IMG/VR virus record: IMGVR_UViG_3300037781_000042
Coordinates: 128,001 to 192,000 of that record
DNA length: 64,000 nt
Direction: 5' to 3' (one strand)
From: a virus
Taxonomy: Duplodnaviria; Caudoviricetes
The position numbers and the translations under genes were made by a program. This document shows positions 16,078 through 42,973 of this stretch, one piece after another. The number at the start of each line of letters is the position of its first letter. Positions within the stretch are counted from its first letter, which is position 1. Below the pieces are notes generated by a model, which was not told the origin of the DNA, made no database searches, and saw nothing but the letters and a program-made list of their open reading frames with translations.

Positions 16078-16956
16078 ATGAATAAAGAAAAGCAACAAAA
16101 AGAAAATTATAATCAAAGTCTTAGAGGAAAGGATTGGTTAGGTATAGTTGTTGATATAGAAGATCCTTTACAAAGAGGAAGAGCTAAGATAAGAATATTT
16201 GAAAGATTTGATCAAAGAGCTCCTATTGACGATAAAGGAACTTATCCCGACGAACCTTTAAAACTAGAAGATTATCTAGATGAATCACATTTTTTACTTC
16301 CTAATAAAGCTTTGCCTTGGATGTTTCAAGTAAATTCTCAAATATTTGCAGGAGGCGAAAATCCAGGATCAGGTTCTTTTTGTACTCCTAAGTTAGGATC
16401 TTTGGTAAAAGTTAATTTTGTAAACGATGACATTTATTCCGGAGAATATCATACTGTTCATAAATTAAATGAAAAGATGATGGGAATAATTACTCGTGAA
16501 GATGGTGATTATGTAAATGCAAATGTTACTTTCTTTGATGAAGATGAAGATTATTGGATGCTTTATACAAAATCTATAGGACTTCAAGTATATCATAAAG
16601 GAAGTCAAATAGTAATTCGCCCAGACTCTTCTATATTCATAGAACATAAAGATACGGAATCTATGATAGAATTAAAAGGTCCTGATATTAAGATAATATC
16701 AAATAGAGATATTGACATAACTTCAGAAAATAGAATAACTGTTAATTCAAGTATAGTTAAAATAAATGGAGACAATACTTATTTAGGAAGCTCTCCTACT
16801 TTTTCTGCTGTTCATGGAGAACCTTTAATGAAATTACTTAAAGCTATGGCAGTAAATATAGACGGAAAAATGTTTGCTACCCCTGGCGTTACCACTACTG
16901 CCGTAGATGCAGCAGAAAATTTAATACTAGCACAAACCGTAAAAGTTGGATCATAA
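16078..16956 (+). CDS. gp5: baseplate hub/spike protein, gp5/VgrG OB-fold
   Basis: WLGIVVDIEDPLQRGRAKIRIF OB-fold motif, PKLGSLVKVNF, and beta-helix-like C-terminal repeats. Confidence 0.85.
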   Translation: MNKEKQQKENYNQSLRGKDWLGIVVDIEDPLQRGRAKIRIFERFDQRAPIDDKGTYPDEPLKLEDYLDESHFLLPNKALPWMFQVNSQIFAGGENPGSGSFCTPKLGSLVKVNFVNDDIYSGEYHTVHKLNEKMMGIITREDGDYVNANVTFFDEDEDYWMLYTKSIGLQVYHKGSQIVIRPDSSIFIEHKDTESMIELKGPDIKIISNRDIDITSENRITVNSSIVKINGDNTYLGSSPTFSAVHGEPLMKLLKAMAVNIDGKMFATPGVTTTAVDAAENLILAQTVKVGS

Positions 16957-17795
16957 TGAATAAAGAATTTAAGACATATAAAGAGTTTTTAAATGAGAGT
17001 CAGGAACTAGATCAATCTATATTTCCATTAGAAGAACCTGAAGAAGTAAAAGCGTTTATAGAAAAACATCTTGTAAATAAAAAATATAATGAAGAATATA
17101 GATTAACAGGAGATTGGAAAGTAGACGAAGAAGGATATTTTAGCACTCCTGGAAATTTAAATATATCTTCTATGAGAGCAGTTAAGAAAAAAATTCCATT
17201 TAAAATAAAAAATATAGGAGGAAATTTTAATTGTAGTCATAATGCTTTATATGATTTAGAAGGTCTTGAGAAGTTAGAACAAGTTGGTGGAAATTTTAAT
17301 TGCGGTTGGAACAATTTACACAATTTAAAAGAATTAAAAAATCTCGAATCAGTAGGGGGTTATTTTGAATGTCAGAGTAATAATAAATTAACTAGTTTAG
17401 AAGGGTTAAAAAAGCTTCAATTTGTTGGAAAAGAATTGCATTATTCATTATATTATTATTTTAATATAGTACATCTAGCACGAAATCATAGGAAGTTTAT
17501 TTATTATTTTAGTACCTTAATGTTCCCACAATTACATTCAAGGGTAAAAGTTTCTATTAAAAATCATTCATCATATTATGATACTTCATACGAAGATGGA
17601 ATAAAAACTTTTGTATCTTTGACACAAAACGAACAAAAGAAAATAATAACTGCTTTAAGTGAAGTAGATCTTCAAGCATATAGAAAACTTCTTTCTTATG
17701 CTGAAGAAAATAATATTAAGTTACCTTTAGATAAAGAAGTTTACAAATGGAATAAAGAAGCTAAAGATTTAGATGATACTGGATTAGAATTTTAA
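16956..17795 (+). CDS. LRR protein family A with capsid-targeting-like leader
   Basis: MNKEFKTYKEFLNE leader; 23-aa GGxFxCxxNxLxxLxGL repeats; ends DLDDTGLEF. Confidence 0.85.
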   Translation: MNKEFKTYKEFLNESQELDQSIFPLEEPEEVKAFIEKHLVNKKYNEEYRLTGDWKVDEEGYFSTPGNLNISSMRAVKKKIPFKIKNIGGNFNCSHNALYDLEGLEKLEQVGGNFNCGWNNLHNLKELKNLESVGGYFECQSNNKLTSLEGLKKLQFVGKELHYSLYYYFNIVHLARNHRKFIYYFSTLMFPQLHSRVKVSIKNHSSYYDTSYEDGIKTFVSLTQNEQKKIITALSEVDLQAYRKLLSYAEENNIKLPLDKEVYKWNKEAKDLDDTGLEF

Positions 17796-17806
17796 TTTTT
17801 TATTTT

Positions 17807-17825
17807 AAAAATTTTTACTATATTA
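17807..17825 (+). promoter_or_regulatory. candidate early promoter AAAAATTTTTACTATATTA
   Basis: Near-identical copy at 54933-54951 on the minus strand; both precede AAGGAG-led genes; low complexity. Confidence 0.35.
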
Positions 17826-17845
17826 AAAATAAAAAGGAGTAAAAA

Positions 17846-18436
17846 TTGAATATTTTTTATTTAGATGAAGATATAGATAAAATAGTAGATTATCATTGCG
17901 ACAAACATGTTGTTAAAATGACAGTAGAATCTATTCAAATGCTAGCTACTGCATATTACATCCAACACGGATACGGAAAAATGTTTAAGAAACTTACAGA
18001 AGAAGAAATTTCTTTTATGAAAAATGAAGTATTTGTAGATTTTCCAAGAGAAGAAATTTATAGAACTTCTCATCCATATCACCCTTCTACTCAATGGGCC
18101 GCACAATCTATAAATAATTGGAATTGGCTTCTACAATTAGGAATGAAACTATCAGCTGAATTTACAAAAAGATACGGAAAAGAACATGCTACAAATCCTA
18201 GATTTGAATGGATGAAAAATAATCCTCCTACAAATCTTCCAGACATTCCATGGACTCCGCCGCCTCTTGCCATGCCTGACATATATAAGCTAGAAAATGT
18301 GGTAGAATCATACAGAAATTTCTACATTCATGATAAACCATTTGCTACATGGGACAGATTAAATAATAAACCAGAATGGTTTGAAAAAGGTGACTTCAGA
18401 ATATGTACAGGGAGTGCAGAGGAGCATCAGGTTTAA
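17846..18436 (+). CDS. pyrimidine-dimer DNA glycosylase-like protein
   Basis: MNIFYLD...HCDKHVVKMTVESIQML, HPYHPSTQWA, VVESYRNFY motifs; TTG start with AAGGAG upstream. Confidence 0.8.
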   Translation: MNIFYLDEDIDKIVDYHCDKHVVKMTVESIQMLATAYYIQHGYGKMFKKLTEEEISFMKNEVFVDFPREEIYRTSHPYHPSTQWAAQSINNWNWLLQLGMKLSAEFTKRYGKEHATNPRFEWMKNNPPTNLPDIPWTPPPLAMPDIYKLENVVESYRNFYIHDKPFATWDRLNNKPEWFEKGDFRICTGSAEEHQV

Positions 18437-18462
18437 TTTTAAATTAAAAGATATAGGTAACT

Positions 18463-19059
18463 ATGCCATACAATAAAAGCTTCTTAGGGGATAAAGAGAC
18501 ACGTCGAGGATATACTACAACTAGTAACTTGGTGATGTTAAATTTTCAGCCTTTATATCAGGATATGTTTGTTTTTGATCCTGATCATTTAAGTGATTAT
18601 GTTCAAGATTATACTAATATTTTGTATTTGTATGAAGAGGAAAATTCTGCTTTTGATGTATATCAGATACAGGCTTTTTTAGAAGATACTTGTGGAATAG
18701 ATGATGTCGACTTTTTAAAGGTTCAGACTAAGAGTAAAGAAGAAGGATTCTTTTTAGACTTTAAAGATTTGGATGTTAATGAACTTGAGTTAGTAAAGTT
18801 TATTAGATATATGGATTCAAATGAAAAAGAATTAGATACTTTAACATTTGATGAGTATAAGAAATTAGGACTTTCCAAAGAGTTAAGTTTTGGAAAACTA
18901 CAAGAGCAAAATTTTTATATTCCTGATATTTATAGACATTTTGAATATGATAAGTTTACTTTTATAGGTGGACCAGAAGAAGATTCTTTATGGGAATTTA
19001 AGATTATGTTTGATGCTTTAAAATTGAAGTATGAATTAGATTATGATTTTATCTTTTAG
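18463..19059 (+). CDS. hypothetical acidic protein
   Basis: 198-aa ORF; no family recognised. Confidence 0.55.
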   Translation: MPYNKSFLGDKETRRGYTTTSNLVMLNFQPLYQDMFVFDPDHLSDYVQDYTNILYLYEEENSAFDVYQIQAFLEDTCGIDDVDFLKVQTKSKEEGFFLDFKDLDVNELELVKFIRYMDSNEKELDTLTFDEYKKLGLSKELSFGKLQEQNFYIPDIYRHFEYDKFTFIGGPEEDSLWEFKIMFDALKLKYELDYDFIF

Positions 19060-19060
19060 A

Positions 19061-19070
19061 GGATATATAG
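19061..19070 (+). promoter_or_regulatory. candidate late promoter GGATATATAG, 3 nt before the ATG
   Basis: Same ATATATAG-NNN-ATG geometry at 26459 (+) and 32065 (-). Confidence 0.55.
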
Positions 19071-19073
19071 TTT

Positions 19074-19760
19074 ATGAGTAGTACTGCACATATAGAAAAT
19101 CCAAATGATCCTGGATTTATTTGTAAACCTGAATTAACTGTATCTGGATTAGCAGAAGGAAAGATATTATTAGATGAAATCCTTTTAGTTTCAGAAGGAT
19201 ATGTTAAAAGAGATTCTATATTAAAAATATCTTTAACTGAATCTTATTTACAAGAAAATGATACTTATACATTTAATGCTCAAGATGTTTATAAATTTAT
19301 TTTAGGAGATAATGTTCAATCTTACTATTTAGAAAAAATAGAAGAGGTTGGAGATGTTACTGTTATTCATGTTTATGGAAAAACAGTTGAATTAGAAAAA
19401 ATATTTGGAACTTTAGAAGCTAAATCTTTATCTGAAGTTTATTTAGAAATTTCTGGTGAATTACAATTAACAGCTCCTTTAACGTGTCAATTAAGCAATC
19501 AGGATCCCGAAATTAGAGGAGTAACTTCTACTTCTGTAATATTTGATTCAAATGAATTAAATTCAAATTTTAGTAAAATAAGAGTTAGATATAAAAAAAT
19601 AAATGATTCAACTTGGTTATTTGCTGAATCATCTACTAGTGGATCTTTAACTTTATCTAATCTAGAAGAAAATGAAATTTATATTGCTTCTTATATGAAG
19701 TATTGTTCTTCTACTGATTGGTCTTTTTATTCTAAAAATTTATCATTCAAAACTTTTTAG
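19074..19760 (+). CDS. putative virion protein with C-terminal fibronectin type III-like domain
   Basis: VTSTSVIF...IRVRYKK..DSTW...SLTLSNLEENEIY pattern typical of FN3. Confidence 0.55.
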   Translation: MSSTAHIENPNDPGFICKPELTVSGLAEGKILLDEILLVSEGYVKRDSILKISLTESYLQENDTYTFNAQDVYKFILGDNVQSYYLEKIEEVGDVTVIHVYGKTVELEKIFGTLEAKSLSEVYLEISGELQLTAPLTCQLSNQDPEIRGVTSTSVIFDSNELNSNFSKIRVRYKKINDSTWLFAESSTSGSLTLSNLEENEIYIASYMKYCSSTDWSFYSKNLSFKTF

Positions 19761-20144
19761 TTCTGGACAATATTTGATAAATTCTAAATTGTCTAATTCT
19801 TTTAATTCCTTTTTACATTCTTTTATTTCTGTAGAAACTATCATAAATTTTTCAATTTTTTCAGAATATTTCTCTTCTATAAATCTCTGTAAATTTTCAA
19901 CTAAAGAAGTATGAATTACAGGAACTTTATAAACAAAGTATTTAGACTTAGAACTTTTAAAACTATTTTGAATTTTCTTAGTTAAAAAACAATTAAAATG
20001 AAAATCTGTATATTCAGGATCTCCTAAATCATGACTATTTTCATAATCTTTTCTAAGAATTTCTACATCTAAAAATTTATAATAAAATGGATCTAAGATG
20101 TCTTTTAAATCTTTTTCTATTTCAGTAGTTAAAATAAAATTCAT
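19743..20144 (-). CDS. hypothetical protein
   Basis: 133-aa ORF at the end of a minus-strand gene run. Confidence 0.5.
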   Translation of the reverse strand: MNFILTTEIEKDLKDILDPFYYKFLDVEILRKDYENSHDLGDPEYTDFHFNCFLTKKIQNSFKSSKSKYFVYKVPVIHTSLVENLQRFIEEKYSEKIEKFMIVSTEIKECKKELKELDNLEFIKYCPELKSFE

Positions 20145-20174
20145 TTATAATAAGTGGTTAATTAAAGTAACAGA

Positions 20175-21659
20175 TTATATATTGACACTAGATTTACGCA
20201 ATTCTTTTATTTGTTCTTCTAAATCACCTGGATTTTCTTCTACATTAATTCTACGAGCTTTAGGTAAAAAGTCTAATTTTTCTATTTCATTATAACTTAT
20301 ATCTAACATACCCGTTATTTCTTTTTGTAATCCTTCAATAGAAGTAAGTTGATTTCCAAATAATATTATATTTCCTTTTACTAGAGGAATTTCTTTTAAA
20401 GTTTTAAGTTTTGTTCTTTGAGCAAATAAAGACCCATTTACTTTTTTAATATCTTCGAACTTTTCTATTTTAGTAAATCCTACAGTTAAATCTCCATCTA
20501 CAATTTCTGGTCCACCTTTTAAAGAAGTTAAGTACTTATTATTTGAAAGATACAAATCTCCTACTTCCTGTGGGCAATGAAGTAAATTTATAATTTCAGT
20601 ATTTTGACAATCTAAATCTCCTACTTTTACTGGAATTCCTTCTAAAGTCTTTAATGGATTATAAGAACAGTCGTATTCGCGACCTACCTGTTTTGGTCCA
20701 TCTACCAAACTAGGCAAATTGTTATAAGAACAATCAAAAATTCCTTCTACTATTTCTGGAGATCCTTCTAAATTTTCTAATTTATTATTAGAGCAATTGA
20801 AATTTTCTGTAATTTTTCTGAATCTAATTCCTATATCTAATAAACTATTTAAATTTCTTCTAAATAAGTTTATGCTTCCATCATAATCATAAGTTCCATC
20901 TCCATTATCAGTTAACTTATCTTCATTAATTCCATATTTTGTAAGTGTACGATGTAATTGAGCTTGAGGAGAAGTTAATTCTCTAGGCATAAAAATATTT
21001 TCATCAAGTCCTAACTCGTTCATAACATAATGCATTCCTATTTCTGTATCATTTGCATTATAAACAAGTCTTCTTTCATCTTCATAAACAGCTACTGCAA
21101 TTTTGGAATAAGTTTTACTGTGTGATCTATTTTTATCTATAATGTAATAAAGAGTTACTCCTTGATTATAAACATAACTTTTAAAATAATTATCTTTTTT
21201 AGCAGCAGTACACCATCTAGTTCCTGATCCGTATTTACAACTAGATTCTATCGTTTGCGGAACAATAATTAAAAAATCATCATTATCTAATATTACTTCT
21301 ACCTCAGAAGTTTCTTTCTTTTCTTTATCTATTTCCTTTTTTCTTTTAAGTGCTTGTGTAATAAGCGAATCAAATTCTTCATAAGAAAGTCTTTGAATAT
21401 CTGCATTTATTAGATTTCTATTTTCTAATTCATGATAAGTCTCTATAGCAGAAGAAAGTTCAAATGGTTCTACTTTATCTTTTAAATGAAATTCAATTAA
21501 TTTTTCTACATATTTAAAATTAGGACTTGGATCCATCTTTACAAACTCGTCAAACGTTTCCTTATCTATTTTATTTGTATTTAAAAATCTTCTTTTAGCA
21601 CTTGCTTTAGATTCATTTAAACTTAAAAAGTCTCTATAATTTAAAAATTCTTTATTCAT
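20175..21659 (-). CDS. WCTA-domain LRR protein (family B) with capsid-targeting-like leader
   Basis: MNKEFLNYRDFLSLNE leader; DPSPNFKYVEK; SCKYGSGTRWCTAA; C-terminal GxFxCSxNxLxxLxGxP repeats. Confidence 0.85.
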   Translation of the reverse strand: MNKEFLNYRDFLSLNESKASAKRRFLNTNKIDKETFDEFVKMDPSPNFKYVEKLIEFHLKDKVEPFELSSAIETYHELENRNLINADIQRLSYEEFDSLITQALKRKKEIDKEKKETSEVEVILDNDDFLIIVPQTIESSCKYGSGTRWCTAAKKDNYFKSYVYNQGVTLYYIIDKNRSHSKTYSKIAVAVYEDERRLVYNANDTEIGMHYVMNELGLDENIFMPRELTSPQAQLHRTLTKYGINEDKLTDNGDGTYDYDGSINLFRRNLNSLLDIGIRFRKITENFNCSNNKLENLEGSPEIVEGIFDCSYNNLPSLVDGPKQVGREYDCSYNPLKTLEGIPVKVGDLDCQNTEIINLLHCPQEVGDLYLSNNKYLTSLKGGPEIVDGDLTVGFTKIEKFEDIKKVNGSLFAQRTKLKTLKEIPLVKGNIILFGNQLTSIEGLQKEITGMLDISYNEIEKLDFLPKARRINVEENPGDLEEQIKELRKSSVNI

Positions 21660-22816
21660 TATTCTATTATTCTTGGTGGTCTGTTTGAAATTACTTCTAA
21701 TAAACCTAATTCTAACTCATCTCTTTTATTTGATTCTGGATTTATATTTTTAGGAGCTTCTGGAATTCTCCTATCTGGATTTACTTCTAAATTTCCTAAA
21801 TCCAGTTGTTCTCTTCTAGCACTCGAAACATTTAATTCTCCTAAATCTAATTGTTCTCTTTCTGAACTTTCTGCATTTATATTATCAGGAAGTCTAATTT
21901 CTCTTTTAAGTTTTGCTTCTTCAGCAGATTCTTCTTCAATATTTGAAATTTTTATTTTATTTGAATCTTTAAAATCTTGATAATCTTCTTCCTTAGGTCT
22001 TCTTTCGTTTCCTTGTTCTGCATATAAACCAGTTTTAGGTCTAACGAAATTAGTTAAGAAATTAAAGTCTTGTCTATTATCATCACTAAAGTAGCCTGTT
22101 CCTCCATATCCAAATAATTCTTTAGTAGGCAAATTATAAACTTCTAAAATTCTTCTAGGAATAATTTCAAATGTATGTTTTATATCATCTTCGGTTCCTT
22201 CATTAGTAATAGAAGATGCAAGTCCCGAATAATCATCAAAAACAAATTCACAATCTCTAAGCTTTAAAACAATTACTCCTTGAGAATCATCATCATATTC
22301 TAATTTATTTCCATTTCTCTTAAGTAGTATTCTAGGATCTATAAGATAAATAGACATATCAAAAAATCTTAAATTTTTAACTAAAACGTCTCTCATATAT
22401 TTTTTATCTTGAACTGTTGATCTATAAGCTTCCATTAAAGATAAAAATTTCATATCGACAGATTCTCTAGAAGATACCGTAAAAGAAGTTCCTTCAGGAA
22501 GTCTTGGACCTTCGTTATTTAAAGTTAAAAGATCATTTACTCCTGAAAGTTGAGTAAACCACCAAGGTTCTTCAATAGAAAATTTTCTTAATAAATTAAC
22601 AAAATAATCTAATTTTTGAACTCTTAAATCGTCTCCTCTTGAAGATAGAAAATCTCTAGCACCTCCTGAAAGTAATCCAGGTTCTAAAGATTCGTCAGGA
22701 GAAATTCTAGGAAAAAATTCAAAACGCAAACCAAATGTTAAATATAATGGATCTTGAACTCCATCTACACTTCTATTTATAAATCTATTTCTATAATTAT
22801 CGTACTTATTTATCAT
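21659..22816 (-). CDS. putative tail-tube-fold baseplate/tail protein
   Basis: DPLYLTFGLRF, a FTVSSRESVDMKF...LRFFDMSIYL...LKLRDCEF pattern reminiscent of gp19/gp54; low-complexity C-terminal tail with REQLDLG repeats. Confidence 0.35.
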   Translation of the reverse strand: MINKYDNYRNRFINRSVDGVQDPLYLTFGLRFEFFPRISPDESLEPGLLSGGARDFLSSRGDDLRVQKLDYFVNLLRKFSIEEPWWFTQLSGVNDLLTLNNEGPRLPEGTSFTVSSRESVDMKFLSLMEAYRSTVQDKKYMRDVLVKNLRFFDMSIYLIDPRILLKRNGNKLEYDDDSQGVIVLKLRDCEFVFDDYSGLASSITNEGTEDDIKHTFEIIPRRILEVYNLPTKELFGYGGTGYFSDDNRQDFNFLTNFVRPKTGLYAEQGNERRPKEEDYQDFKDSNKIKISNIEEESAEEAKLKREIRLPDNINAESSEREQLDLGELNVSSARREQLDLGNLEVNPDRRIPEAPKNINPESNKRDELELGLLEVISNRPPRIIE

Positions 22817-22826
22817 TTGTATCTAT

Positions 22827-23732
22827 TTAAAATTCTAATCCTGTATCTTCTAAATCTTTAGCTTCTTTATTCCATTTATAAACTTCTTGATTTATAGATA
22901 ATTTAATATTATTTTCTTCTGAATAAGAAAGAAGTTTTCTACATGAGGGTAGATCCCAATCCATTAAATCTTCTATAATCTTCTTTTGTTCTTCTTCTGG
23001 TAAAGATACTAGATATTTTATTGAATCTTCGTATTTTTCTTGAGGTTCAACTTCTATATTTCCTTTAACTTCAAAAGTAAATTTTTTAGAAAGTATATTG
23101 TTACGATGACACCGGAAATCGCCACCTACAGACTTAAGATTTTCAAGACCTTTCAAACTGGTTAACTTGTTACCATGGCACGCAAAAGTACCATCTACAA
23201 ACTTAAGACTTTGAAAACCTTCTAAACTAGTTAACTTATTATAATGCAACCATAAATCCTCTCCTACAGACTTAAGATTCTCAAGCCCTTTTAAACCGGT
23301 TAATTTGTTATTATCACACCTGAAAGAGCCACCTACAAACTCAAGATTCTTAAGACCTTCTAAAGTAGTTAACTGGTTTTTAGAACATAAAAAATAATCA
23401 CGTACAGACTTAAGACTTTCTAAACCTTCTAAACTAGTTAATTTGTTATTAGAACAATCGAAATCGCCACCTACAGACTTAATTCTAAAAGGTAACTTAG
23501 TTAACTTCATTTCACTTAAATTTATATCCCCTGTACAAGAGACATACCCTTCTTCACCTATTGTCCAAGCACCAGATAAACGATGCTTCCTAGTTGGAGT
23601 CTTTTTCCCTTCTAGGTTTTCTTGGATCCATTTTTTAACTTCTCCAGGATCTTCTAAAGGAAACCTAGATTGATCGAAACCTTTGCTTTCGTTTATAAAC
23701 TCTGTATAATTTTTTATCTGTTTAGTTATCAA
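22827..23732 (-). CDS. LRR protein family A with capsid-targeting-like leader
   Basis: TTG start; ITKQIKNYTEFINE leader; six 23-aa LRRs; ends DLEDTGLEF. Confidence 0.85.
   Translation of the reverse strand: MITKQIKNYTEFINESKGFDQSRFPLEDPGEVKKWIQENLEGKKTPTRKHRLSGAWTIGEEGYVSCTGDINLSEMKLTKLPFRIKSVGGDFDCSNNKLTSLEGLESLKSVRDYFLCSKNQLTTLEGLKNLEFVGGSFRCDNNKLTGLKGLENLKSVGEDLWLHYNKLTSLEGFQSLKFVDGTFACHGNKLTSLKGLENLKSVGGDFRCHRNNILSKKFTFEVKGNIEVEPQEKYEDSIKYLVSLPEEEQKKIIEDLMDWDLPSCRKLLSYSEENNIKLSINQEVYKWNKEAKDLEDTGLEF
23126..23483 (-). repeat. 69-bp tandem repeat encoding LRR units
   Basis: (c/g)taca(g/a)act(t/c) recurs on the + strand at 23126, 23195, 23264, 23333, 23402 and 23471. Confidence 0.9.
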
Positions 23733-24172
23733 TTTTCTTTATTTTTGTTTTTTACATTTGCTAACTTCTTTTTAGTTAGTATCAATTTCATCATCATTGC
23801 AAGCAATAATGAATTTTCTTCTCTATTTAATACATAAGCAAAATTTTCTTTTAAAGACCACTTACTGATAAATTCTCTCATATTTAAAGAAGATACATCA
23901 ATTGCAATTGCATCTATTTCTCTAGTAACTTCTTCTGCTCCAAAAGAACCATCGTTATTAAAGCTTCCTAAAAAACTTATTCTTTTAGAATCTACTTCTA
24001 GTTCTAATTCGTCTAAAATTTCTGCTAAAACGTCGTGAGTTTCATCTTGAGGCTCTACTATAAAAGGTCTATTATTTAAAACATTTTCAGAATAATAAAC
24101 TCCTAACTGCCCTTCCTTTGTCATAGTATACAAAAGAAATCCCATTTTAGTATATTCAATATTATTTGGCAT
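23729..24172 (-). CDS. hypothetical protein, possibly a degenerate Nudix fold
   Basis: ETHDVLAEILDELELEV loosely recalls a Nudix box but lacks the GX5EX7REUXEE consensus. Confidence 0.3.
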   Translation of the reverse strand: MPNNIEYTKMGFLLYTMTKEGQLGVYYSENVLNNRPFIVEPQDETHDVLAEILDELELEVDSKRISFLGSFNNDGSFGAEEVTREIDAIAIDVSSLNMREFISKWSLKENFAYVLNREENSLLLAMMMKLILTKKKLANVKNKNKEN

Positions 24173-25394
24173 TAATACTCCCTAATACTGGAGCCCATCT
24201 TCTCTGTAAAAAATCATACATAGAAGTTTTCTCCTTGTTATTTTTCCAAGTTAACTTTTTCCTTAAAGTAACTCCTTTTAAATCATCAATTGCATCTTTA
24301 CCCAAAGAAGGATTGTTTTCTATTGTCAAGGTACCTGAAATGTTTTTCGGTAAACCTTTTAAACTTGTTAATTTTTTATTTCCTTCTATTTTAAAACTTT
24401 CAACACCTTTAAATTCTGAAAAATCTACGCTTTCTAAAGATTCTAGATCTGTATCAGAAATAACAATTGCTCCTGTTATTTTAAAATCTATATTCTTCAT
24501 TCTAGAAAAATCGATATAAGGAATATCAGAATTTACATAAAAATCTTTAAAATGAATCTGTTCAACGTTTTTTTCAACATTATGTCCTATTTTAGGATTA
24601 TGATTGTGAACTAAAATTTTTCTGCTTTCTCCTTCTGGTTCAGGTTTTTCTAAAAGCTTTTTAATTTTATCTGGTAAAGCATTCCACCAAATTCTTCTTT
24701 CTTCATTCATTCCAGTATCTAAAATAGGATTAAATGAAGAATCAGGTGCGTCCCAAAAATTAGAAAGCTGTCCACTATAATTTACTTGGGCAGCAACCTT
24801 ATATAAAGGATTTTTATCTTCACTCGAAACGGGTTGACTATCAAAAGCTTTGTTTGTTATAACATAAAAATGTTGTCCTTGTCTCCAAAAATAATCGTTC
24901 CAGTGTACTGGAGTTAAAAACGTAATACACCATTTAGTTCCTGATCCTATCTTTTTTGCTCCTGTCCAATTAAATACTAAATGACATCTCCAAGCATCGT
25001 CATCATAAACCATTACACTATTTTCAGAAATTTCTTTTTTCTTCTTTTGTGTATTAGAAATCTTTCCTCTAGCATCTATAATAACTTTTTCAAAGTCATC
25101 TATTTCAGAATATCTTTGAATGTCTTTATCGTTTCCACTTATTATATTTCTATTTGTTTTTTCGTGAAACTCTTCTATTAAATGACTAAGAGCCATTATT
25201 CTTTCCAGTTCCATGATTTGAGAATAATTTTCATGATCTTTCATTTGAAGAAAGAAGTCACACATTTTCTCAATATATTTTTTATTATTTGTTGGATCTG
25301 CAGATAAAAGCTGTGTAAAAGTAGAACTGTTGATTCTTCCAGTTTCTACAAATCTTTGTTCTGCTTGTTTTTTACCTTCATTAAGATGTTGCAT
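24162..25394 (-). CDS. WCTA-like-domain protein (family B) with short leader and short LRR tail
   Basis: MQHLNE then GKKQAEQRF; DPTNNKKYIEK; GAKKIGSGTKWCIT; LTSLKGLPKNISGTL. Confidence 0.8.
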   Translation of the reverse strand: MQHLNEGKKQAEQRFVETGRINSSTFTQLLSADPTNNKKYIEKMCDFFLQMKDHENYSQIMELERIMALSHLIEEFHEKTNRNIISGNDKDIQRYSEIDDFEKVIIDARGKISNTQKKKKEISENSVMVYDDDAWRCHLVFNWTGAKKIGSGTKWCITFLTPVHWNDYFWRQGQHFYVITNKAFDSQPVSSEDKNPLYKVAAQVNYSGQLSNFWDAPDSSFNPILDTGMNEERRIWWNALPDKIKKLLEKPEPEGESRKILVHNHNPKIGHNVEKNVEQIHFKDFYVNSDIPYIDFSRMKNIDFKITGAIVISDTDLESLESVDFSEFKGVESFKIEGNKKLTSLKGLPKNISGTLTIENNPSLGKDAIDDLKGVTLRKKLTWKNNKEKTSMYDFLQRRWAPVLGSINAK

Positions 25395-25423
25395 TCTTAT
25401 TTGTTTTTATTTCTTTTAGTATA

Positions 25424-25433
25424 GTATATATTT
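25424..25433 (-). promoter_or_regulatory. candidate late promoter AAATATATAC
   Basis: Minus strand, 29 nt upstream of the ORF starting at 25394. Confidence 0.5.
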
Positions 25434-26102
25434 CTATTGTTTTACGTACCTGTCTAAGTATTCATAACAACATTTTAAAAACCATTCAAAAGTATCTGTT
25501 CCTTTAAATAATTTTAAATAAACATTCCATATTTGACCTTTAACATGATCTACAGGTTCTACTTCTTGTAAAGTTCTTTCTATTTTTTCTTTATTCCACT
25601 TCAATTGATTTTGGAACTTATTCATTTGTTCATTTGCATAAGCTCTTATTTCTTCAAAAGTAGAAAAATATTTAATATCATCTTCTAAATCAGAGCCTTC
25701 CATAAAAGGTCTTTTAGGATTTAAAGAATCTTGTTGATGTGTCATTTCATGAACTAAAGAATCTTCTAATCTAGACATCCAATTATCCCATTTAGTATCA
25801 TTTTCTTTTATAGAAAGAACATCTGGCTGTAGTAAAATATGTACTTGTTCATCTTTAGAATTATGAAATGCTGGACTTCCTTCTAATTCTGGAAAATCTT
25901 TGTAAGTATGAAATACTACGTCATATTTTTTAGTTACCATTGTTAAATATTCAGCAAGCTCCTCTAAAGAAGTTACTTTAGATTGAATAAAATCTTTAGA
26001 TCTAGCAACGTCTTTTTTAATTAATTCAATAGCATCCCATGGGATTGATGTTGATACTTTTTCATTTATAAATTCTTTATATGTCTTAAATTCTTTATTC
26101 AT
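25434..26102 (-). CDS. putative zincin metallopeptidase with capsid-targeting-like leader
   Basis: MNKEFKTYKEFINE leader; LVHEMTHQQD (HExxH) and downstream EEIRAYANE. Confidence 0.6.
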   Translation of the reverse strand: MNKEFKTYKEFINEKVSTSIPWDAIELIKKDVARSKDFIQSKVTSLEELAEYLTMVTKKYDVVFHTYKDFPELEGSPAFHNSKDEQVHILLQPDVLSIKENDTKWDNWMSRLEDSLVHEMTHQQDSLNPKRPFMEGSDLEDDIKYFSTFEEIRAYANEQMNKFQNQLKWNKEKIERTLQEVEPVDHVKGQIWNVYLKLFKGTDTFEWFLKCCYEYLDRYVKQ

Positions 26103-26440
26103 TATGGTGTATAATTTTCTAATGGTACTGTTAAATCAATTTTATCTCCATTAAAAGTAAAACATAAAAGATATTCAGGAGTAGTATTTACATTAGCAAC
26201 AAAATAATTTACGAATATGTTTGAAGAAAAATCTACTAATACATTGGCGTCCGAAGTTCCTAAATCGGAATGTGTATACACTTCTAAATTATCTACAAAT
26301 TTCTTTATTACTATTGTTTGATCATCATAATCTAAAGTGTCTTCCAAAAGTATATCAGAAACTTGTTCTAAAGGATATTTCATTACAGGAAATACATCTT
26401 CCTTTAAATACGTTATTACTATAGGATCTAAAATTTTCAT
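26102..26440 (-). CDS. hypothetical protein (late)
   Basis: 112-aa ORF downstream of the GGATATATAA motif; TAATG overlap with the next gene. Confidence 0.55.
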   Translation of the reverse strand: MKILDPIVITYLKEDVFPVMKYPLEQVSDILLEDTLDYDDQTIVIKKFVDNLEVYTHSDLGTSDANVLVDFSSNIFVNYFVANVNTTPEYLLCFTFNGDKIDLTVPLENYTP

Positions 26441-26445
26441 ATAAC

Positions 26446-26466
26446 TTATATATCCTTAATATATAG
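26446..26466. promoter_or_regulatory. back-to-back candidate late promoters
   Basis: GGATATATAA on minus (26446-26455) and TAATATATAG on plus (26457-26466) in a 29-nt divergent gap. Confidence 0.6.
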
Positions 26467-26469
26467 TTT

Positions 26470-32229: not shown

Positions 32230-32233
32230 TACC

Positions 32234-33226: not shown

Positions 33227-33227
33227 A

Positions 33228-34272: not shown

Positions 34273-34297
34273 AGTTTTTTCGCAACTCCTTTTATTA

Positions 34298-34325: not shown

Positions 34326-34330
34326 ACTGA

Positions 34331-34340
34331 AAATATATAT
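34331..34340 (+). promoter_or_regulatory. candidate late promoter AAATATATAT
   Basis: 26 nt upstream of the leader-bearing gene at 34367. Confidence 0.45.
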
Positions 34341-34366
34341 TATTAAGGAAATCAACTGAAAATGAA

Positions 34367-35989
34367 ATGAATAAAATAGTAAAAGGATATACAGAATTTT
34401 TAAATGAATCTAAAGCAACTGCTAAAAGAAGGTTCTTAGAAACAGATAAAATAGATAAAGAAACTTTTGATAAATTAGTTTCTATAGATCCAAGTTCATC
34501 ATTTAAATATGTAGAAAAAATGATCGAATATCACTTAGAACATAAAGTTGATGTAGAAGCTTTAGAAAAGCAAATAAAAGAATTTGACAAATTATCTTCT
34601 AGAAATTTAATTAAAAATAAAGATATTCAAAGATTAAGTTATGAAGATTTCAAAAAGGAAATAGATCAAGGGTCAACTAAACTAGAAACTAAAGAATATC
34701 AGAAAGAAAAAGAAGAGGGAATACAGGTTATTCTTGATAATGAATATTTTAGAGTAGTTGTTCCAGATACAGAAGAAGCTTCTTGTAAATATGGTCAAGG
34801 AACTAGATGGTGTACGGCTGCTACCAGATCGCAAAACCGTTTTAAAGAGTATCGATACAGAGATGATGTTACTCTTTACTATATTTTAGACAAAAGAAAA
34901 TCTAAAGAAGACAGTTTACATCAAATTGCTGTAGCTATTTATCCAAACGGAAATTCTAACGTATTTGATGCAACAGATTATTCTATGTCATTTGAAGAAA
35001 TTCCAAAAGAATTGTTTAAATATATTCCAGCAAATACCTTTAGACCTAGGAATTTAAGTATTGAATTGAATCAATTTGAAAAATTTGGGATAGAGAAAAA
35101 TAATTTAAAAAAATTAGAAAATGGGTTATACTACTATAAAGGAGATCTTCATTTAAGTAAAGAAGTATTTGATTTTTTAGAAAAAGAAAATATTTATTTA
35201 GAAGCTGTAGAAGGAACTATAAAAATATTAAATGATGATAAATTAACAAATCTTAAAATGCTTCAACATTTAAAAGTTGCAATTTCATTTATTTTAGAAG
35301 GATGTGAAAATTTAACTTCTTTAGAAGATCTTAAACAGTTAACACATATACATAAATATCTTACTATAAGACATTTAAACATTACAAATTTAAAAGGATT
35401 AGAAAACTTACAACAAGCAACATATCTTAATTTAGGGTACAACCAATTATATACTTTAGAACATCTTAAAAGCTTAACAGAGGTGGAAGACTTGTCTTTA
35501 CCTAATAATAAGTTAACAAATTTAAAGGGGTTAGGGAAAATTAAATCTCTTTATACTCTGAACGTACAAACAAATTATTTAAAAGATTTTAAAGGTTTAG
35601 AAAAATTAGAAAAATTATTTATGTTATATTGTTCAAACAATCAAATTGAAAATTTTAACGGTTTAGAAGGATTAAAAAATGAAAAAATATTTAGTATTTC
35701 TATAATTAAAAATAAATTAACAATTTTAAAATTTCCATCTTCAATTAAAATTATAGAAAATATAAATCTACATAAAAATCCTATAATTTCTCCTAAAACA
35801 AAAATAGAAATACAGGATATTATACATAATTATACAGGAAGCGGATTTAATTTAAAAACAGGAATTGAAGAATTTTTGAAATTAACAAAGGAAGAACAAG
35901 AAAGAGCTTTAGAAAAATTAAAAGACTGGGATCCTGAAGCCTACAATAAAACATTAAAATATATAAATAAAATGAACAATAAAAAATAG
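34367..35989 (+). CDS. WCTA-domain LRR protein (family B) with capsid-targeting-like leader
   Basis: MNKIVKGYTEFLNE leader; DPSSSFKYVEK; SCKYGQGTRWCTAA; SDS22-like LxxLxGLxxL repeats; WDPEAY cap. Confidence 0.85.
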   Translation: MNKIVKGYTEFLNESKATAKRRFLETDKIDKETFDKLVSIDPSSSFKYVEKMIEYHLEHKVDVEALEKQIKEFDKLSSRNLIKNKDIQRLSYEDFKKEIDQGSTKLETKEYQKEKEEGIQVILDNEYFRVVVPDTEEASCKYGQGTRWCTAATRSQNRFKEYRYRDDVTLYYILDKRKSKEDSLHQIAVAIYPNGNSNVFDATDYSMSFEEIPKELFKYIPANTFRPRNLSIELNQFEKFGIEKNNLKKLENGLYYYKGDLHLSKEVFDFLEKENIYLEAVEGTIKILNDDKLTNLKMLQHLKVAISFILEGCENLTSLEDLKQLTHIHKYLTIRHLNITNLKGLENLQQATYLNLGYNQLYTLEHLKSLTEVEDLSLPNNKLTNLKGLGKIKSLYTLNVQTNYLKDFKGLEKLEKLFMLYCSNNQIENFNGLEGLKNEKIFSISIIKNKLTILKFPSSIKIIENINLHKNPIISPKTKIEIQDIIHNYTGSGFNLKTGIEEFLKLTKEEQERALEKLKDWDPEAYNKTLKYINKMNNKK

Positions 35990-35993
35990 AACT

Positions 35994-36830: not shown

Positions 36831-36856
36831 AATTTAAAATATAAAGAACAAAACAA

Positions 36857-37444
36857 ATGAATAATTACAAACAATTTTCAAAAACGGATACATATTCTGG
36901 AGTTATTACTTACATACGTGACTATGGAGGACAAAAATCTAAAATAACACAAGAAAAAGAATATGTATTTAAAAATATGTTTTTTTCAGAATTTTATAAT
37001 TTATGCAATATTCAATATAATAACCATAAAAGAACAAAAGATCATAATCCAAATACAAAGAAAATAAACAGCTGGATTGTCGATTTGTTAATTAAAAATG
37101 ATCAAACCGGTGAAACTCTTCATATAAAAGAAGAATCGGATATAAATTACTTTTTAAATATTCCAATAGAATATTTATATGCGGAAAATAAAAATATGAA
37201 TAAAGAAAATAAAATAATAGAAAGCTTTGATGAATTTCAAAATGAAAAAGTAAATGAAGAAATTAAAGCATTAGGAACAAGAAGTCAAATAGATGAAGTT
37301 TCTGATTTAATAGATGAGGCATTAAGTAAATCAGAAATTGCATTAGACGATTCACTATTAAGAAAATACCTTTCAGATGCACGAACAAGAATACAATTTA
37401 TTTTAGACGTAATAGAAAAGGAATTACAAACGTCTACAAAATAA
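36857..37444 (+). CDS. hypothetical protein containing an internal in-frame leader-bearing start at 37196
   Basis: Residue 114 begins MNKENKIIESFDEFQNEKVNE. Confidence 0.55.
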   Translation: MNNYKQFSKTDTYSGVITYIRDYGGQKSKITQEKEYVFKNMFFSEFYNLCNIQYNNHKRTKDHNPNTKKINSWIVDLLIKNDQTGETLHIKEESDINYFLNIPIEYLYAENKNMNKENKIIESFDEFQNEKVNEEIKALGTRSQIDEVSDLIDEALSKSEIALDDSLLRKYLSDARTRIQFILDVIEKELQTSTK

Positions 37445-37463
37445 AATTAATTTGTTATAAAAT

Positions 37464-37500
37464 AAAAGAGGACTTAAAAATTAATTTAGGTCCTCTTTTT
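37464..37500. terminator. bidirectional rho-independent terminator
   Basis: aaaagaggac...gtcctctttt stem between convergent genes. Confidence 0.8.
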
Positions 37501-37504
37501 TATT

Positions 37505-37771
37505 TTATTTCTTCTTTCCTTTATTATTATTCTTTTCTTCTACTTCTTCCTCTATATCTTCTGGATATTCTATTTGAAGACTATCTAAAAAAGCATCTAA
37601 TTTAGAATTATCATGTACATCTTGAAACCAACCTACTCCTTGTAGAATTCCCATTGAAGCAGCAATTAAATTTGGATGTGCTTCTGTACCAAGTTTATTA
37701 TTTTCAAAGCATTTAACCAAATAACCTTCAGCTGCTTTCTTTAATTTTTTAGAATATTTTACTTCTATCAT
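37505..37771 (-). CDS. hypothetical protein
   Basis: 88-aa ORF with AAGGAG upstream. Confidence 0.55.
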   Translation of the reverse strand: MIEVKYSKKLKKAAEGYLVKCFENNKLGTEAHPNLIAASMGILQGVGWFQDVHDNSKLDAFLDSLQIEYPEDIEEEVEEKNNNKGKKK

Positions 37772-37782
37772 TTAATTCTCCT

Positions 37783-39678: not shown

Positions 39679-39698
39679 TAAATCCTTTGTTTTTATTT

Positions 39699-39726
39699 AT
39701 TATACACTGTATAAGTGATAAAGTTT
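39699..39726 (-). promoter_or_regulatory. candidate AAACTTT-N15-TATAAT promoter
   Basis: AAACTTT ATCACTTATACAGTG TATAAT upstream of the glycosyltransferase. Confidence 0.65.
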
Positions 39727-39732
39727 TAGATA

Positions 39733-39742
39733 AAATATATAA
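39733..39742 (+). promoter_or_regulatory. candidate late promoter AAATATATAA
   Basis: 24 nt upstream of the ORF at 39767. Confidence 0.45.
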
Positions 39743-39766
39743 ATTATAATTCAATCTTAGTATATA

Positions 39767-42160
39767 ATGGCAGTTACTACACCTCCTATTAACGGAGAAA
39801 ATATTAAAAATCCTTTAATTGTTCAATCTGATAAGCCAGGTTCTGCAAATAATGATGGTCCACCTTCTAGTGCTCCAGCCGATCCAGCAGCAACAAATCC
39901 TAGAGATGTAGAAAGTTCTGTAGAAAAAGAATTTGAATATTTTAGAGATAAAGCTGGAATATTTAATACAAATAATGATTTTATTAAGCCTAAGAAAAAG
40001 GCTACAGAATCATGGATGAATAAATATGCTTTTATTTCTTATGGAGGATCTTATCTAGACGGAAGTTCTGGAAATGTTAAGAATGATTTTGTAGGAGAAG
40101 GAAAAAAACAAACAGCTACAAAAGGATTAAATACTGATATAGAAAAGTGGCAAAATCCTACGACTAAGAATATTATTGAATGGTCTAAGACTCTTAGAAA
40201 AAATACTCCACAAAGCAGCACATTTGATCCACAGTCTCAGATACAAGCTTCTGATGGAACAAGTGGAAATATAACCGAAGATGGAGAAACTGTAGATACT
40301 GGAAATACAAATTTAAGTGATTTACAAACTACTTCTAAAGGTGCCATAGACAGAGGAAATATAGGAAAGTCAAATGCTAAAACAATTAATGACGCTACTG
40401 CTTCTGGAAATACAGTAAATGGAATAGGAAACTTAGAATATGAATGGAAAGACTTCGCTGCTTGTAAATGGTGGGGGAGGATTCCAAATAATAAAATGAT
40501 AACTCTTAGAAGATTTAAATTGCCTGTTTTAGATAATGGAGTTATTGCAGGAAAAGAAAGATTAAAAGCAATTTTAAAGAAAAATAGGTATGATCCTGAT
40601 GATTATATTACTTCTGATTCTGCTAGAGCAATTACTTATTATGGAGAAGGAACAGGAAATACTTTAGGAAGTTTTACTAATTGGACAGTAGGAGCAAACT
40701 GGGAAGATGTAAATTCTGATTTAGGAAATCCTGAAATTAATAAAGATGGGATTCAAAACGGAGCTTCTAGTTTTTTAGACAATCCTATTGATGGATCTGC
40801 TATAGTAGATAAAATATCAGGAGCTACTAATTCAGACACTTTAGCAAGAATTATTAAAGGATATGGGTTACAAAAACAGTTAGAAGATGGAGATAAAAAA
40901 AGTCTTTTAGAATTAGTTAAAACTCAGTCTAAAGAAAATGATCCATTTTCGAATGGATGGCAAAATAGAATTTATGGTCCTATCAATGTAGTTACCAGAA
41001 CTATGAGAAGAGCAAGAGGACTAAAATTTGATGCAGGTACAATTGATATTAATTTTGAATATGAAGCTGCTCAAATAGGAACAATGAACAGTAAATTGTT
41101 AATGATAGATATTATGAATAATATGCATGCATTAACATATAATAATGGATCTTTTTATGGAGGAGATTATAGGTTTCATAGACAACCAACAGAACTTCCA
41201 TATCCAGAAACTTTAGTAGAACAATTAGAAAAAATGGCTACTGGAGTAGGGGAAGGAGAAGTAAATTATTCAGAAATTTTTAAAGCATATAAAGGAATTG
41301 CTAAAGATTATGGGACTGATTTAGTTCAAAGATTTATTAAAGATGCTGGAGAAATAGGAAGCGAAAGCTATAAAACAATTAAAGAGATAATCGATGCTGG
41401 AGGTTTTGAAGTTCCAACAGATCCAAAGACTCCTAAAGCAGGTGAAAATAGACAAGATACTTCTGGAACATTAACTTTCGGAGATGGAAACTTTGATGAT
41501 TCTGGAGCGCCAAGTACTGGAGGAGGTACTTCAGAAACTGCTTTATCTGATATATTTTCTAAGGCTTCTGGATTTGTTGCTTTATTATCAAAAGCAAGTG
41601 GTCAATTAGTTGACGCTATAGAAAATAATATTAATAAGGATGGATCGTTATTGAAAACAGTAGTTACTTCTGGATTATTCCAGGAAGGATATGACATTCA
41701 AAGAATAAACGAAAAGATAATGAGAATTAATCCATTAACTACAGGAGAGCCTGTAGGAGAATGGCACGTAACAGTAGGAAATCCTATGAATCCTGCTATG
41801 ATGATAGGAAATTTAGTCTGTACAGGAATGAGTATGGAAATAGGAGAAACTTTAGGTCCAGATGATTTTCCAACTTCTGTTAAATTTACGGTTACTTTAA
41901 AACATGGTAGAGATAGAGATATTGGAGATATTATGTCAATGTTTAACTTAGGACAAGGAAGATTTTATACTCCTTTAAACAATAATCAAAGTGAAGAACC
42001 TTGGGATTATGGGTTTTCTACTAGAAATACAGGAAACGATACAGGTCTTTTGGATAATGATCCTGCTGGAAGAATAAACCAAAATGATGATGGAACTATT
42101 ACAGACGCAGATCCTGCTCCACAAGATTTATTTATTGGTCCTAGAAGACCGGGAGAATAA
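39767..42160 (+). CDS. large putative baseplate / tail-tube initiator protein
   Basis: C-terminal WHVTVGNPMNPAMMIGNLVCTGMSMEIG...SVKFTVTLKH resembles a tube-fold terminus; heads a run with gp53- and gp27-like genes. Confidence 0.4.
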   Translation: MAVTTPPINGENIKNPLIVQSDKPGSANNDGPPSSAPADPAATNPRDVESSVEKEFEYFRDKAGIFNTNNDFIKPKKKATESWMNKYAFISYGGSYLDGSSGNVKNDFVGEGKKQTATKGLNTDIEKWQNPTTKNIIEWSKTLRKNTPQSSTFDPQSQIQASDGTSGNITEDGETVDTGNTNLSDLQTTSKGAIDRGNIGKSNAKTINDATASGNTVNGIGNLEYEWKDFAACKWWGRIPNNKMITLRRFKLPVLDNGVIAGKERLKAILKKNRYDPDDYITSDSARAITYYGEGTGNTLGSFTNWTVGANWEDVNSDLGNPEINKDGIQNGASSFLDNPIDGSAIVDKISGATNSDTLARIIKGYGLQKQLEDGDKKSLLELVKTQSKENDPFSNGWQNRIYGPINVVTRTMRRARGLKFDAGTIDINFEYEAAQIGTMNSKLLMIDIMNNMHALTYNNGSFYGGDYRFHRQPTELPYPETLVEQLEKMATGVGEGEVNYSEIFKAYKGIAKDYGTDLVQRFIKDAGEIGSESYKTIKEIIDAGGFEVPTDPKTPKAGENRQDTSGTLTFGDGNFDDSGAPSTGGGTSETALSDIFSKASGFVALLSKASGQLVDAIENNINKDGSLLKTVVTSGLFQEGYDIQRINEKIMRINPLTTGEPVGEWHVTVGNPMNPAMMIGNLVCTGMSMEIGETLGPDDFPTSVKFTVTLKHGRDRDIGDIMSMFNLGQGRFYTPLNNNQSEEPWDYGFSTRNTGNDTGLLDNDPAGRINQNDDGTITDADPAPQDLFIGPRRPGE

Positions 42161-42178
42161 AAGATAATAAATAAAAAT

Positions 42179-42973
42179 ATGAATAAAGAATTTAAAACAT
42201 ATAAAGAGTTTTTAAACGAAAGTAAAGAATTTGATCAATCGAGATTTCCTTTAGAAGATCCTGAAGAGGTAAAAGAGTGGATAAATAAAAATGTAATAGG
42301 ACAAATAAGTAATGATAGAATACGTAGATTTCAAGATAGTATTCAGTGGAATGTAGACAATGAAGGATATTTTAGTACTCCTGGATCTTTGTGGTTGCAT
42401 AGAATGGAATTAATAAAATTACCTTTTAAAATTAAATCAATAGGAAAAATTTTAAGTATTTCCGAAAACAATTTAACGGATCTTAAAGGTTTAGAAAATT
42501 TAGAATTTATAGGTGATTTTTTTATGGCAGATGGTAATCAATTAACTACTTTAGAAAATTTAAAAAATCTTAAATATGTAGGAGGATCTTTTAGTTGTTA
42601 CGATAATAAGTTGACAATGTTAAAAGGACTCGAAAATCTCAAATACATAGGAAATAATTTTGGTTGTTTTAATAATAAATTACTTTCTAAAAAAGTTCCA
42701 TTTGAAGTGAAAGGAACTATTTATTTTAAAGGAGATTTGCCTAGTAGTTCCCCTTACAATTATGAAGATTCTGTAAAACATTTAGCTTCTTTAAGTGAAG
42801 AAGAACAAAAGAAAATTATAGGAGATCTAGAATCTTGGGATCCTGAAGCCTATCAAATGTTAAAGGAGTATTCTTGGAAAAAAAGATTAAATATTTCAGG
42901 ATTACATACTGAAGAAGAGCTTGAATGGAGAAAAAAGGCAGAAATATTAGATGATACCGGATTAGAATTTTAA
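42179..42973 (+). CDS. LRR protein family A with capsid-targeting-like leader
   Basis: MNKEFKTYKEFLNE leader; 23-aa LRRs; WDPEAY cap; ends ILDDTGLEF. Confidence 0.85.
   Translation: MNKEFKTYKEFLNESKEFDQSRFPLEDPEEVKEWINKNVIGQISNDRIRRFQDSIQWNVDNEGYFSTPGSLWLHRMELIKLPFKIKSIGKILSISENNLTDLKGLENLEFIGDFFMADGNQLTTLENLKNLKYVGGSFSCYDNKLTMLKGLENLKYIGNNFGCFNNKLLSKKVPFEVKGTIYFKGDLPSSSPYNYEDSVKHLASLSEEEQKKIIGDLESWDPEAYQMLKEYSWKKRLNISGLHTEEELEWRKKAEILDDTGLEF

Follow-up and report, generated by a model that had tools for sequence, protein, structure and literature searches.

The 64,000-bp window analysed here covers bases 128001–192000 of the 211,581-bp record IMGVR_UViG_3300037781_000042, a virus contig from pond metagenomes with 27% G+C. 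It encodes three members of a family of leader-tagged leucine-rich repeat (LRR) proteins, termed family A, which are candidates for proteins packaged in the phage head and injected into the host. The members are encoded at window positions 16956–17795 (plus strand, 279 residues), 22827–23732 (minus strand, 301 residues, with a TTG start) and 42179–42973 (plus strand, 264 residues), and are named below by their first coordinate. The first-pass annotation had described three open reading frames (ORFs) here with a common leader, N-cap, 23-residue LRRs and C-terminal region, and ORF calling and alignment recovered them; its family of three holds for the window, whereas a whole-genome ORF scan added a fourth paralogue beyond it, at genome positions 205420–206262 (minus strand, 280 residues). 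All four paralogues align end to end in the order leader (MNKEFKTYKEF[LI]NES), N-cap, 23-residue LRRs and helical C-terminal region with the invariant end DTGLEF. The invariant residues of the N-cap are DQS-FPL--P-E-K, with DQSxFPLExPxEVK shared by the three window members. Nucleotide identity is 0.81–0.85 at the ends (first 30 and last 16 codons) and 0.53–0.68 in the middle, so the description ‘fixed ends, variable middle’ is quantitatively true.

In 16956, the leader occupies codons 1–14 (16956–16997, ending FLNE) and is followed by the N-cap, three canonical 23-residue LRRs (approximately 17217–17426), an aromatic-rich, non-canonical stretch (residues ~166–211) and the C-terminal helical domain ending DTGLEF. 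The 22827 protein has a leader of 15 codons (23732–23688), the N-cap, five canonical LRRs with a cap repeat (23058–23471) and the C-terminal helical domain. The same arrangement is found in 42179, with its leader at 42179–42220 and three canonical LRRs plus a cap repeat at approximately 42443–42718, while the paralogue at genome position 205420 has four canonical repeats. A cap repeat thus follows the canonical LRRs in every paralogue except 16956, where the non-canonical stretch stands instead. Repeat alignment bore out the differing repeat numbers (3, 5 and 3) and differing repeat-face residues proposed for the window members. The C-terminal tail, D-[LI]-[DE]-D-T-G-L-E-F-COOH (for example, window 17775–17792), is invariant, predicted to be disordered, acidic and terminated by Phe; it may be loosely analogous to the acidic tip with which the bacterial single-stranded DNA-binding protein docks its partners.

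The fold of family A is predicted to be an LRR solenoid. The alignment-based AlphaFold2 model of 22827, with a predicted local distance difference test score (pLDDT) of 87.9 and a predicted template modelling score of 0.82, comprises disordered residues 1–16, an N-cap made up of a helix and a hairpin, a solenoid (residues 88–225) with short strands at LRR positions 4–5, a four-helix C-terminal domain (residues 234–296) and a free tail of the last four residues; structure prediction, which had been named as a check on the family, thus returned an N-cap, an LRR solenoid and a helical C-terminal domain. The 28 repeats keep an exact 23-residue period around an LxxLxLxxN core, with Asn 9, Leu 11 and Leu 20 invariant. 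Foldseek matched the 22827 model at a probability of 1.0 to LRR structures, including Leptospira LIC10831, SspH1/IpaH, variable lymphocyte receptors and internalins, and structure searches yielded LRR proteins alone, viral ones among them. A family-A profile matched the Roco LRR structure 5il7 with E = 1e-16. With the Pfam model LRR_4 (cut-off 27), the three window proteins scored 28.5 bits (P0002), 12.5 bits (P0001) and 14.9 bits (P0003); a Pfam DUF6558 match (E = 0.003) lay under its cut-off.

More than 3,600 matches place the LRR core in a very large family of metagenomic proteins. The C-terminal domain is limited to a small clade, an exhaustive phmmer search finding 2 representatives in 1.84 billion, both of the family itself, and a search of the ESM Atlas with the domain alone gave nothing beyond generic helical-repeat look-alikes. 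Scanning metagenomes and viral contigs with the family profile added just three further loci, and near-identical DNA had no match among deposited phages. None of the PADLOC defence models matched the four paralogues at E = 0.01 or better, which gives no backing to the suggested role as decoys or inhibitors of bacterial immune sensors.

Variation between the paralogues is concentrated on one face of the predicted solenoid. Across the 28 repeats, entropy is 0–2.5 bits except at LRR positions 3, 5, 7 and 8, where it is 2.8–3.25 bits; these four are the x positions of LxxLxLxxN, whose residues in LRR proteins form the lining of the concave sheet. Identity between paralogues is 0.09 at the predicted concave positions, 0.38 at exposed convex positions and 0.70 at core positions, with non-synonymous divergence (dN) of 1.30, 0.46 and 0.25, respectively. 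This contrast is kept in the first and cap repeats, where orthology is fixed by the flanking domains. Repeat number also varies between close relatives: the family-A DNA of two metagenomic fragments (L016 and L009) is 98.6–100% identical apart from a 138-nt deletion that removes exactly two repeats.

The variation was also followed at short evolutionary distance, in contig consensus sequences of a phage approximately 97% identical to this one, taken from an aquatic metagenome of another study. In 16956, 9 of the 15 changed codons listed (of 22 differences) alter the protein, and some of these fall at concave positions 7 and 8 of repeat 1. The baseplate-hub gene immediately upstream (16078–16956, plus strand) evolves under strong purifying selection, with 1 of 22 listed substitutions altering its protein, and the two sets of listed changes differ significantly (Fisher’s exact test, p = 3e-4). 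The LRR domain of 22827 is 88% identical in run X14, between flanks 96–98% identical; this is suggestive but was left unused, as the short repeat-region contig may be a paralogue. The solenoid fold, the focus of variation on the concave face and the excess of protein-changing substitutions over the hub gene in a near-identical strain together back the earlier proposal of diversified binding proteins.

The leader matches, by its sequence, a T4-type capsid targeting sequence. The T4 internal proteins IPII and IPIII start with MKTYQEFIAE (read from NC_000866), and KTYKEFLNE of family A is identical to KTYQEFIAE of T4 at six of nine positions. In T4, the ten-residue capsid targeting sequence loads proteins onto the scaffold core and is then removed by gp21 (PMC9026906, PMC3012670), which cuts after L/I-x-E, the hydrophobic residue and the Glu being the processing determinants (PMC9026906). 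The family-A leader retains both residues of this cleavage motif, and F[LI]NE is followed by Ser in all eight family members examined. It is constrained as a peptide, with a ratio of non-synonymous to synonymous substitution (dN/dS) of 0.08 at a dS of ~1.15, and is modelled as disordered (pLDDT below 50 for residues 1–16 in both AlphaFold2 models). The leader also heads unrelated proteins, namely those encoded at genome positions 17139 and 17787, a 222-residue protein (25434–26102, minus strand; MNKEFKTYKEFINE) and a 540-residue protein of other architecture (34367–35989, plus strand). In the last of these, it is followed by a domain bearing a YGxGTRWCTAA motif, then by LRRs, and finally by a C-terminal helix that shows weak similarity to the family-A C-terminal region. 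Because the unrelated protein at 25434–26102 carries the same leader, the leader is a portable tag, more than a product of family paralogy.

Genes for T4-type head assembly are present in the same phage. A Peptidase_S77/gp21 protease (PF03420, 56.3 bits, E = 3e-16) and a Gp23 capsid protein (PF07068, 100 bits, E = 8e-30) both score above the Pfam cut-off. The protease, whose domain is encoded from genome position 58895 onward, is fused to a scaffold containing about twelve 14-residue repeats with the tag-like core YSEY[LIV]AE (YSEY[LIV]AEN), each with a terminal cleavage motif. The capsid protein bears the site AMNE|ADGG, placed like the T4 capsid-protein site, LTE|AEIGG.

Family A is probably (roughly 0.6) a set of head-packaged, protease-processed and injected LRR binders with a fast-evolving concave face, which would travel by the capsid route and not with the tail. 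The first-pass annotation had called the proteins injected on the strength of neighbouring tail genes; that adjacency gives no support, whereas the capsid-type leader and the T4-type head-assembly genes lend it indirect support, and given these two features the predicted route is the head interior instead of the tail.

Several observations weigh against this interpretation. The family-A tag has four more N-terminal residues than that of T4, and the mature chains hold one to five further [LI]-x-E triplets that would need to escape cleavage. The predicted mature proteins, of 25–33 kDa, and of about 29–33 kDa for the four paralogues, are acidic (pI 4.6–6.5), whereas T4 IPI, IPII and IPIII are basic (pI 9.0–9.7), so their behaviour in a DNA-filled head may differ from that of the T4 proteins. 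The concave dN/dS of 2.5 between paralogues was rejected as proof of positive selection, being a saturated value from pooled Nei–Gojobori counts with uncertain repeat orthology. In the strain comparison, the gene-wide omega (dN/dS) of 16956 is ~0.45, which shows relaxed or partly diversifying selection and falls short of proving adaptive evolution. Residues ~166–211 of the same protein contain no recognizable LRR and have a pLDDT below 50 in the AlphaFold2 model, and this stretch of ~45 residues could be decaying. A compensated frameshift was considered as the origin of this odd middle and rejected, as the other two frames are full of stops and do not restore the repeats.

These last features would also be expected if the genes were drifting, selfish baggage, that is, leader-flanked cassettes spread by recombination without benefit, in which the variable face reflects relaxed constraint only. 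Such an origin would fit the partly unfoldable middle of 16956, an omega that does not exceed 1, and the gain and loss of cassettes between close relatives. It sits poorly with the purifying selection on scaffold, cap, core and C-terminal residues (dN/dS 0.2–0.47). All reading frames are intact, and identical family-A alleles recur over many pond samples and years (the 42179 protein, for example, was found unchanged and in the same context in several pond samples), and we consider this explanation very improbable.

A second explanation accepts packaging and processing but assigns the proteins to the virion itself, as head-interior parts such as scaffold helpers, DNA organizers or inner-body-like mass, with no host target. 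The heads of the giant phages phiKZ, 201phi2-1 and SPN3US are packed with processed proteins in large amounts, and a part of these is structural (PMC9026906); the tag resembles the repeats of the scaffold, and a need for the proteins in bulk could account for four or more paralogues in one genome. Structural proteins should be conserved, however, whereas the concave face is almost randomized between paralogues, and both repeat number and gene number differ between near-identical phages. The acidic family-A proteins would in addition be poor DNA condensers. A purely structural function therefore appears highly unlikely compared with that of an injected binder.

All three family-A genes of the window are closely linked to the gene before them. 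The start of 16956 overlaps the preceding gene by 1 nt, that of 22827 overlaps the upstream stop by 4 nt, and 42179 follows an 18-nt spacer. Upstream of 16956 are the hub or gp5-like gene, which matches PHROG baseplate and hub families, and before it a tail-sheath gene (12512–16075, plus strand, 1,187 residues). Directly downstream of 22827, which shares a minus-strand block with other tagged genes, is a conserved core gene for a 385-residue protein (21659–22816, minus strand); in Tenacibaculum phage PTm1, the homologous gene (ORF-235) is next to one annotated as baseplate hub. The gene ending 18 nt upstream of 42179 (39767–42160, plus strand) encodes an unannotated conserved core protein of 797 residues with homologues in PAU, PTm1/pT24, Chryseobacterium, Flavobacterium and Lak phages. 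The neighbouring genes for 797-, 385-, 225- and 747-residue proteins had no match in Pfam or in a sequence search of solved structures, and PHROGs gave for the neighbours only a weak tail-sheath match, to the 225-residue protein (E = 1.7e-4). The statement that each family member lies directly beside a tail or baseplate gene accordingly holds for 16956, has indirect backing for 22827 through the PTm1 homologue and is not borne out for 42179, whose neighbour is unannotated. We interpret this placement as a probable sign that the genes are expressed along with late structural genes, as head cargo would require, and not as evidence of association with the tail. A scan of positions 12000–27000 for sigma-70-type promoters and terminators found fewer promoter-like sites than in shuffled sequence and established no late-promoter motif.

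The neighbourhood nevertheless bears on a third explanation, in which packaging into the head does not take place: the N-terminus would be a shared translation-start region or turnover signal, and the LRR proteins would be tail or baseplate adhesins, host-range factors or late cytoplasmic binders. Translational coupling of 16956 to the hub-like gene is in keeping with this, as are the LRR genes of other metagenomic fragments that lie within structural modules, next to sheath and tube genes in L006 and next to a capsid gene in L007, and an LRR-like ORF assigned with weak probability in a vibriophage tail module (PMC10945359). The high similarity of leader DNA between genes could moreover point to a role at the RNA or DNA level. 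The leader, however, is kept as a peptide through synonymous change, it fits the T4 capsid targeting sequence, cleavage motif included, and unrelated proteins carry it. None of the three window proteins matched a PHROG tail, fibre or baseplate family, and the 22827 model has no apparent trimerization or attachment domain, both of which speak against a tail component. We judge a location outside the head unlikely, if somewhat less so than the two preceding explanations.

In the region 2704–6297 of the T4-like fragment L007 (IMGVR_UViG_3300009285_002054), an LRR gene lies directly downstream of protease-scaffold and gp23-type capsid genes. Fragments carrying other LRR families were scanned for head genes, and four of the five are only 7–24% complete.

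For family A as injected head cargo, we infer docking, cleavage, packaging, ejection and target binding, next to the homologies, architecture, variation pattern and recombination junctions that were observed. The genes, whose starts overlap the upstream gene or lie no more than 18 nt behind it, would be translated together with large late or structural genes. The disordered tag of 14–15 residues, with the core KTYKEF[LI]NE, would attach the protein to the prohead's scaffold core, and the gp21-family protease would cut after [LI]-N-E, leaving a mature protein that starts at the next Ser. This protein would remain in the DNA-filled head and exit through the tail with the DNA at infection. In the cell, the hypervariable concave face would bind its target, and the paralogues may be directed to different targets or to variants of one. 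Three modes of evolution were observed in the family: concave positions exchange amino acids rapidly, 69-nt repeat units are added or removed in frame, and whole genes come and go by recombination within the leader-coding DNA, a stretch shared with little change by unrelated cargo genes.

The last of these modes is illustrated by fragment L014, which is 85–96% identical to genome positions 16442–18609 and contains two extra family-A genes. These are located between cargo genes that directly abut in the pond phage genome. BLAST and three-way alignments placed both junctions inside the ~45 nt of leader-coding DNA, and one of the inserted genes has the same 42-nt leader on either side. Leader DNA is near-identical between unrelated cargo genes. 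The coding sequence of the tag therefore acts as a recombination site, which explains the dispersed positions of the genes. Family A is also present in the phage represented by L009 and L018, whose genes neighbouring the family have no counterpart in the pond phage although tag-bearing genes are present. The N-terminus of the 385-residue core protein (21659–22816), MINKYDNYRNRFINRS, loosely resembles the leader NKEFKTYKEFINES, with Arg in place of Glu; recombination may have left it behind as a tag that then decayed or was converted.

Comparable leaders occur on other LRR proteins. A leader of the type MK[HY][IL]K..F..FE[SN], with a terminal hydrophobic-x-E, was found in 21 of 113 other LRR homologues, compared with 0.76 expected from shuffles. 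Fragment L005 (IMGVR_UViG_3300036669_000019) encodes, at 172–8735, eleven tandem leader-tagged LRR paralogues of alternately 222 and 264 residues, which start with MKHIKPYKIFES and end with HYKIIE and form another family with fixed ends and a variable number of repeats. Within the pond phage, a second recurrent N-terminus, MKKE[NQ][RK]IVE[SN]F, also ends in I-x-E; it is found in the window at 5900–6226 and 10561–11037 and at genome positions 203776–204255 and 208639–209346, and may represent a second class of tag.

The T4 internal proteins are the classic example of proteins that enter the host along with phage DNA, IPI being a dedicated restriction inhibitor. IPI, IPII, IPIII and Alt of T4 bear the capsid targeting sequence and are cut by gp21 (Mullaney & Black 1996, cited in PMC9026906; PMC3012670). 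The N-terminal tag of family A is likewise short, belongs to their sequence type (KTY-x-EF-[IL]-x-E) and ends in L/I-x-E. Further likenesses are the portability of the tag across unrelated proteins, the gp21- and gp23-type head genes, and cargo that is polymorphic between related phages. The payload is different: where T4 has a small basic protein or an enzyme, family A would deliver an acidic, ~30-kDa LRR solenoid joined to a C-terminal domain of its own, and its genes form a multi-gene family dispersed over the genome.

The giant phages phiKZ, 201phi2-1 and SPN3US likewise have many head-internal proteins, propeptides cut after Glu by a T4-like protease and a large injected load, and the gp21-like proteases that process their ejection and inner-body proteins cut after S/A-x-E (PMC9026906, PMC5694885). 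Their propeptides differ from the family-A leader in being long and in lacking a common short tag, their cleavage motif is another one, and no LRR cargo has been reported for them. Promoter-stem-loop (PeSL)-mediated modular shuffling in T4-type genomes, with highly variable internal-protein loci comprising more than 30 variants, is described in PMC2839356, which cites Repoila et al. 1994 and Comeau et al. 2007. Single-gene cassettes of family A similarly come and go between near-identical phages through short repeated sequences; unlike PeSL, an intergenic regulatory element, the recombining repeat here is the coding sequence of the tag.

Among proteins outside phages, the type III-secreted IpaH, SspH1 and YopM and the Listeria internalins also consist of an LRR solenoid that is delivered to, or presented at, a target cell and binds protein through its concave face, as is proposed for family A. 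They are among the best structural matches, but the resemblance is no more than an analogy, with E near 1e-3 and TM-scores of 0.3–0.4, and family A, which has no E3 ligase or anchoring domain, differs from these effectors in its delivery machine, organisms and targets. With lamprey variable lymphocyte receptors it shares caps that are fixed at both termini, LRR modules that vary in number and concave residues that are hypervariable. Receptor diversity arises by somatic gene conversion, whereas that of family A consists of germ-line paralogy and population polymorphism.

No paper was found that joins a capsid targeting sequence with leucine-rich proteins, and literature on jumbo-phage LRR proteins, or on LRR proteins together with prohead proteases, contained nothing about packaged LRR proteins. 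If LRR scaffolds are routinely loaded into capsids by a T4-type tag, injected cargo would be readable from sequence in uncultured phages, and the common but unexplained LRR genes of large phages would gain a function. The tag would then play two parts, as the address of a protein and as a site of DNA recombination through which cargo genes move. Family A offers testable material in natural alleles two repeats apart and in paralogues that differ almost solely on one face.

A broader and far more speculative idea, which we hold only tentatively and regard as doubtful, is that large T4-like phages hold a germ-line repertoire of capsid-delivered LRR binders that is in place before phage gene expression. 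Tag-mediated cassette exchange and repeat-unit recombination would reshuffle this repertoire, and each paralogue would neutralize a different first-line host factor, such as an immune sensor or nuclease. Were this so, it would form a phage-side counterpart of LRR-based recognition repertoires, and the leader-tagged LRR families of metagenomes would be one widespread, undescribed class of injected counter-defence proteins.

The host is likely a member of the Bacteroidota, because the nearest relatives of the LRR-adjacent core genes are in Sphingomonas phage PAU, Tenacibaculum phages PTm1/pT24, and Chryseobacterium, Flavobacterium and Prevotella Lak phages; relatives infect Flavobacteriia and further Bacteroidota. 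In independently assembled metagenomes, contig ends fall in the leader, at the 3′ end common to the LRR genes and within their repeats (window 16959–16981, 17767–17774, 22828–22997 and 23481–23496); as these are dispersed repeats, assemblies of such phages may under-report LRR genes.

Two large paralogous tail-sheath genes are located near one another, at 6882–10238 (1,118 residues) and 12512–16075, and in each the sheath homology (PHROG 34521) is confined to the C-terminal third. A second family in the window, defined by an N-terminal helical segment (KRRFLETDKIDKETF..DPS) and the YGxGTRWCTAA motif, is encoded at 34367–35989 (plus strand), 20175–21659, 24162–25394 and 48447–54882 (all minus strand), the gene at 20175–21659 being a paralogue of that at 34367–35989. 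Two of its members have the leader and C-terminal LRRs; four tandem paralogues (512–557 residues) and a gene for a 410-residue protein are without the leader. Three more LRR genes on the minus strand (58773–60269, 60301–61335 and 61361–62296) also have no leader, so that some LRR proteins of the pond phage are untagged.

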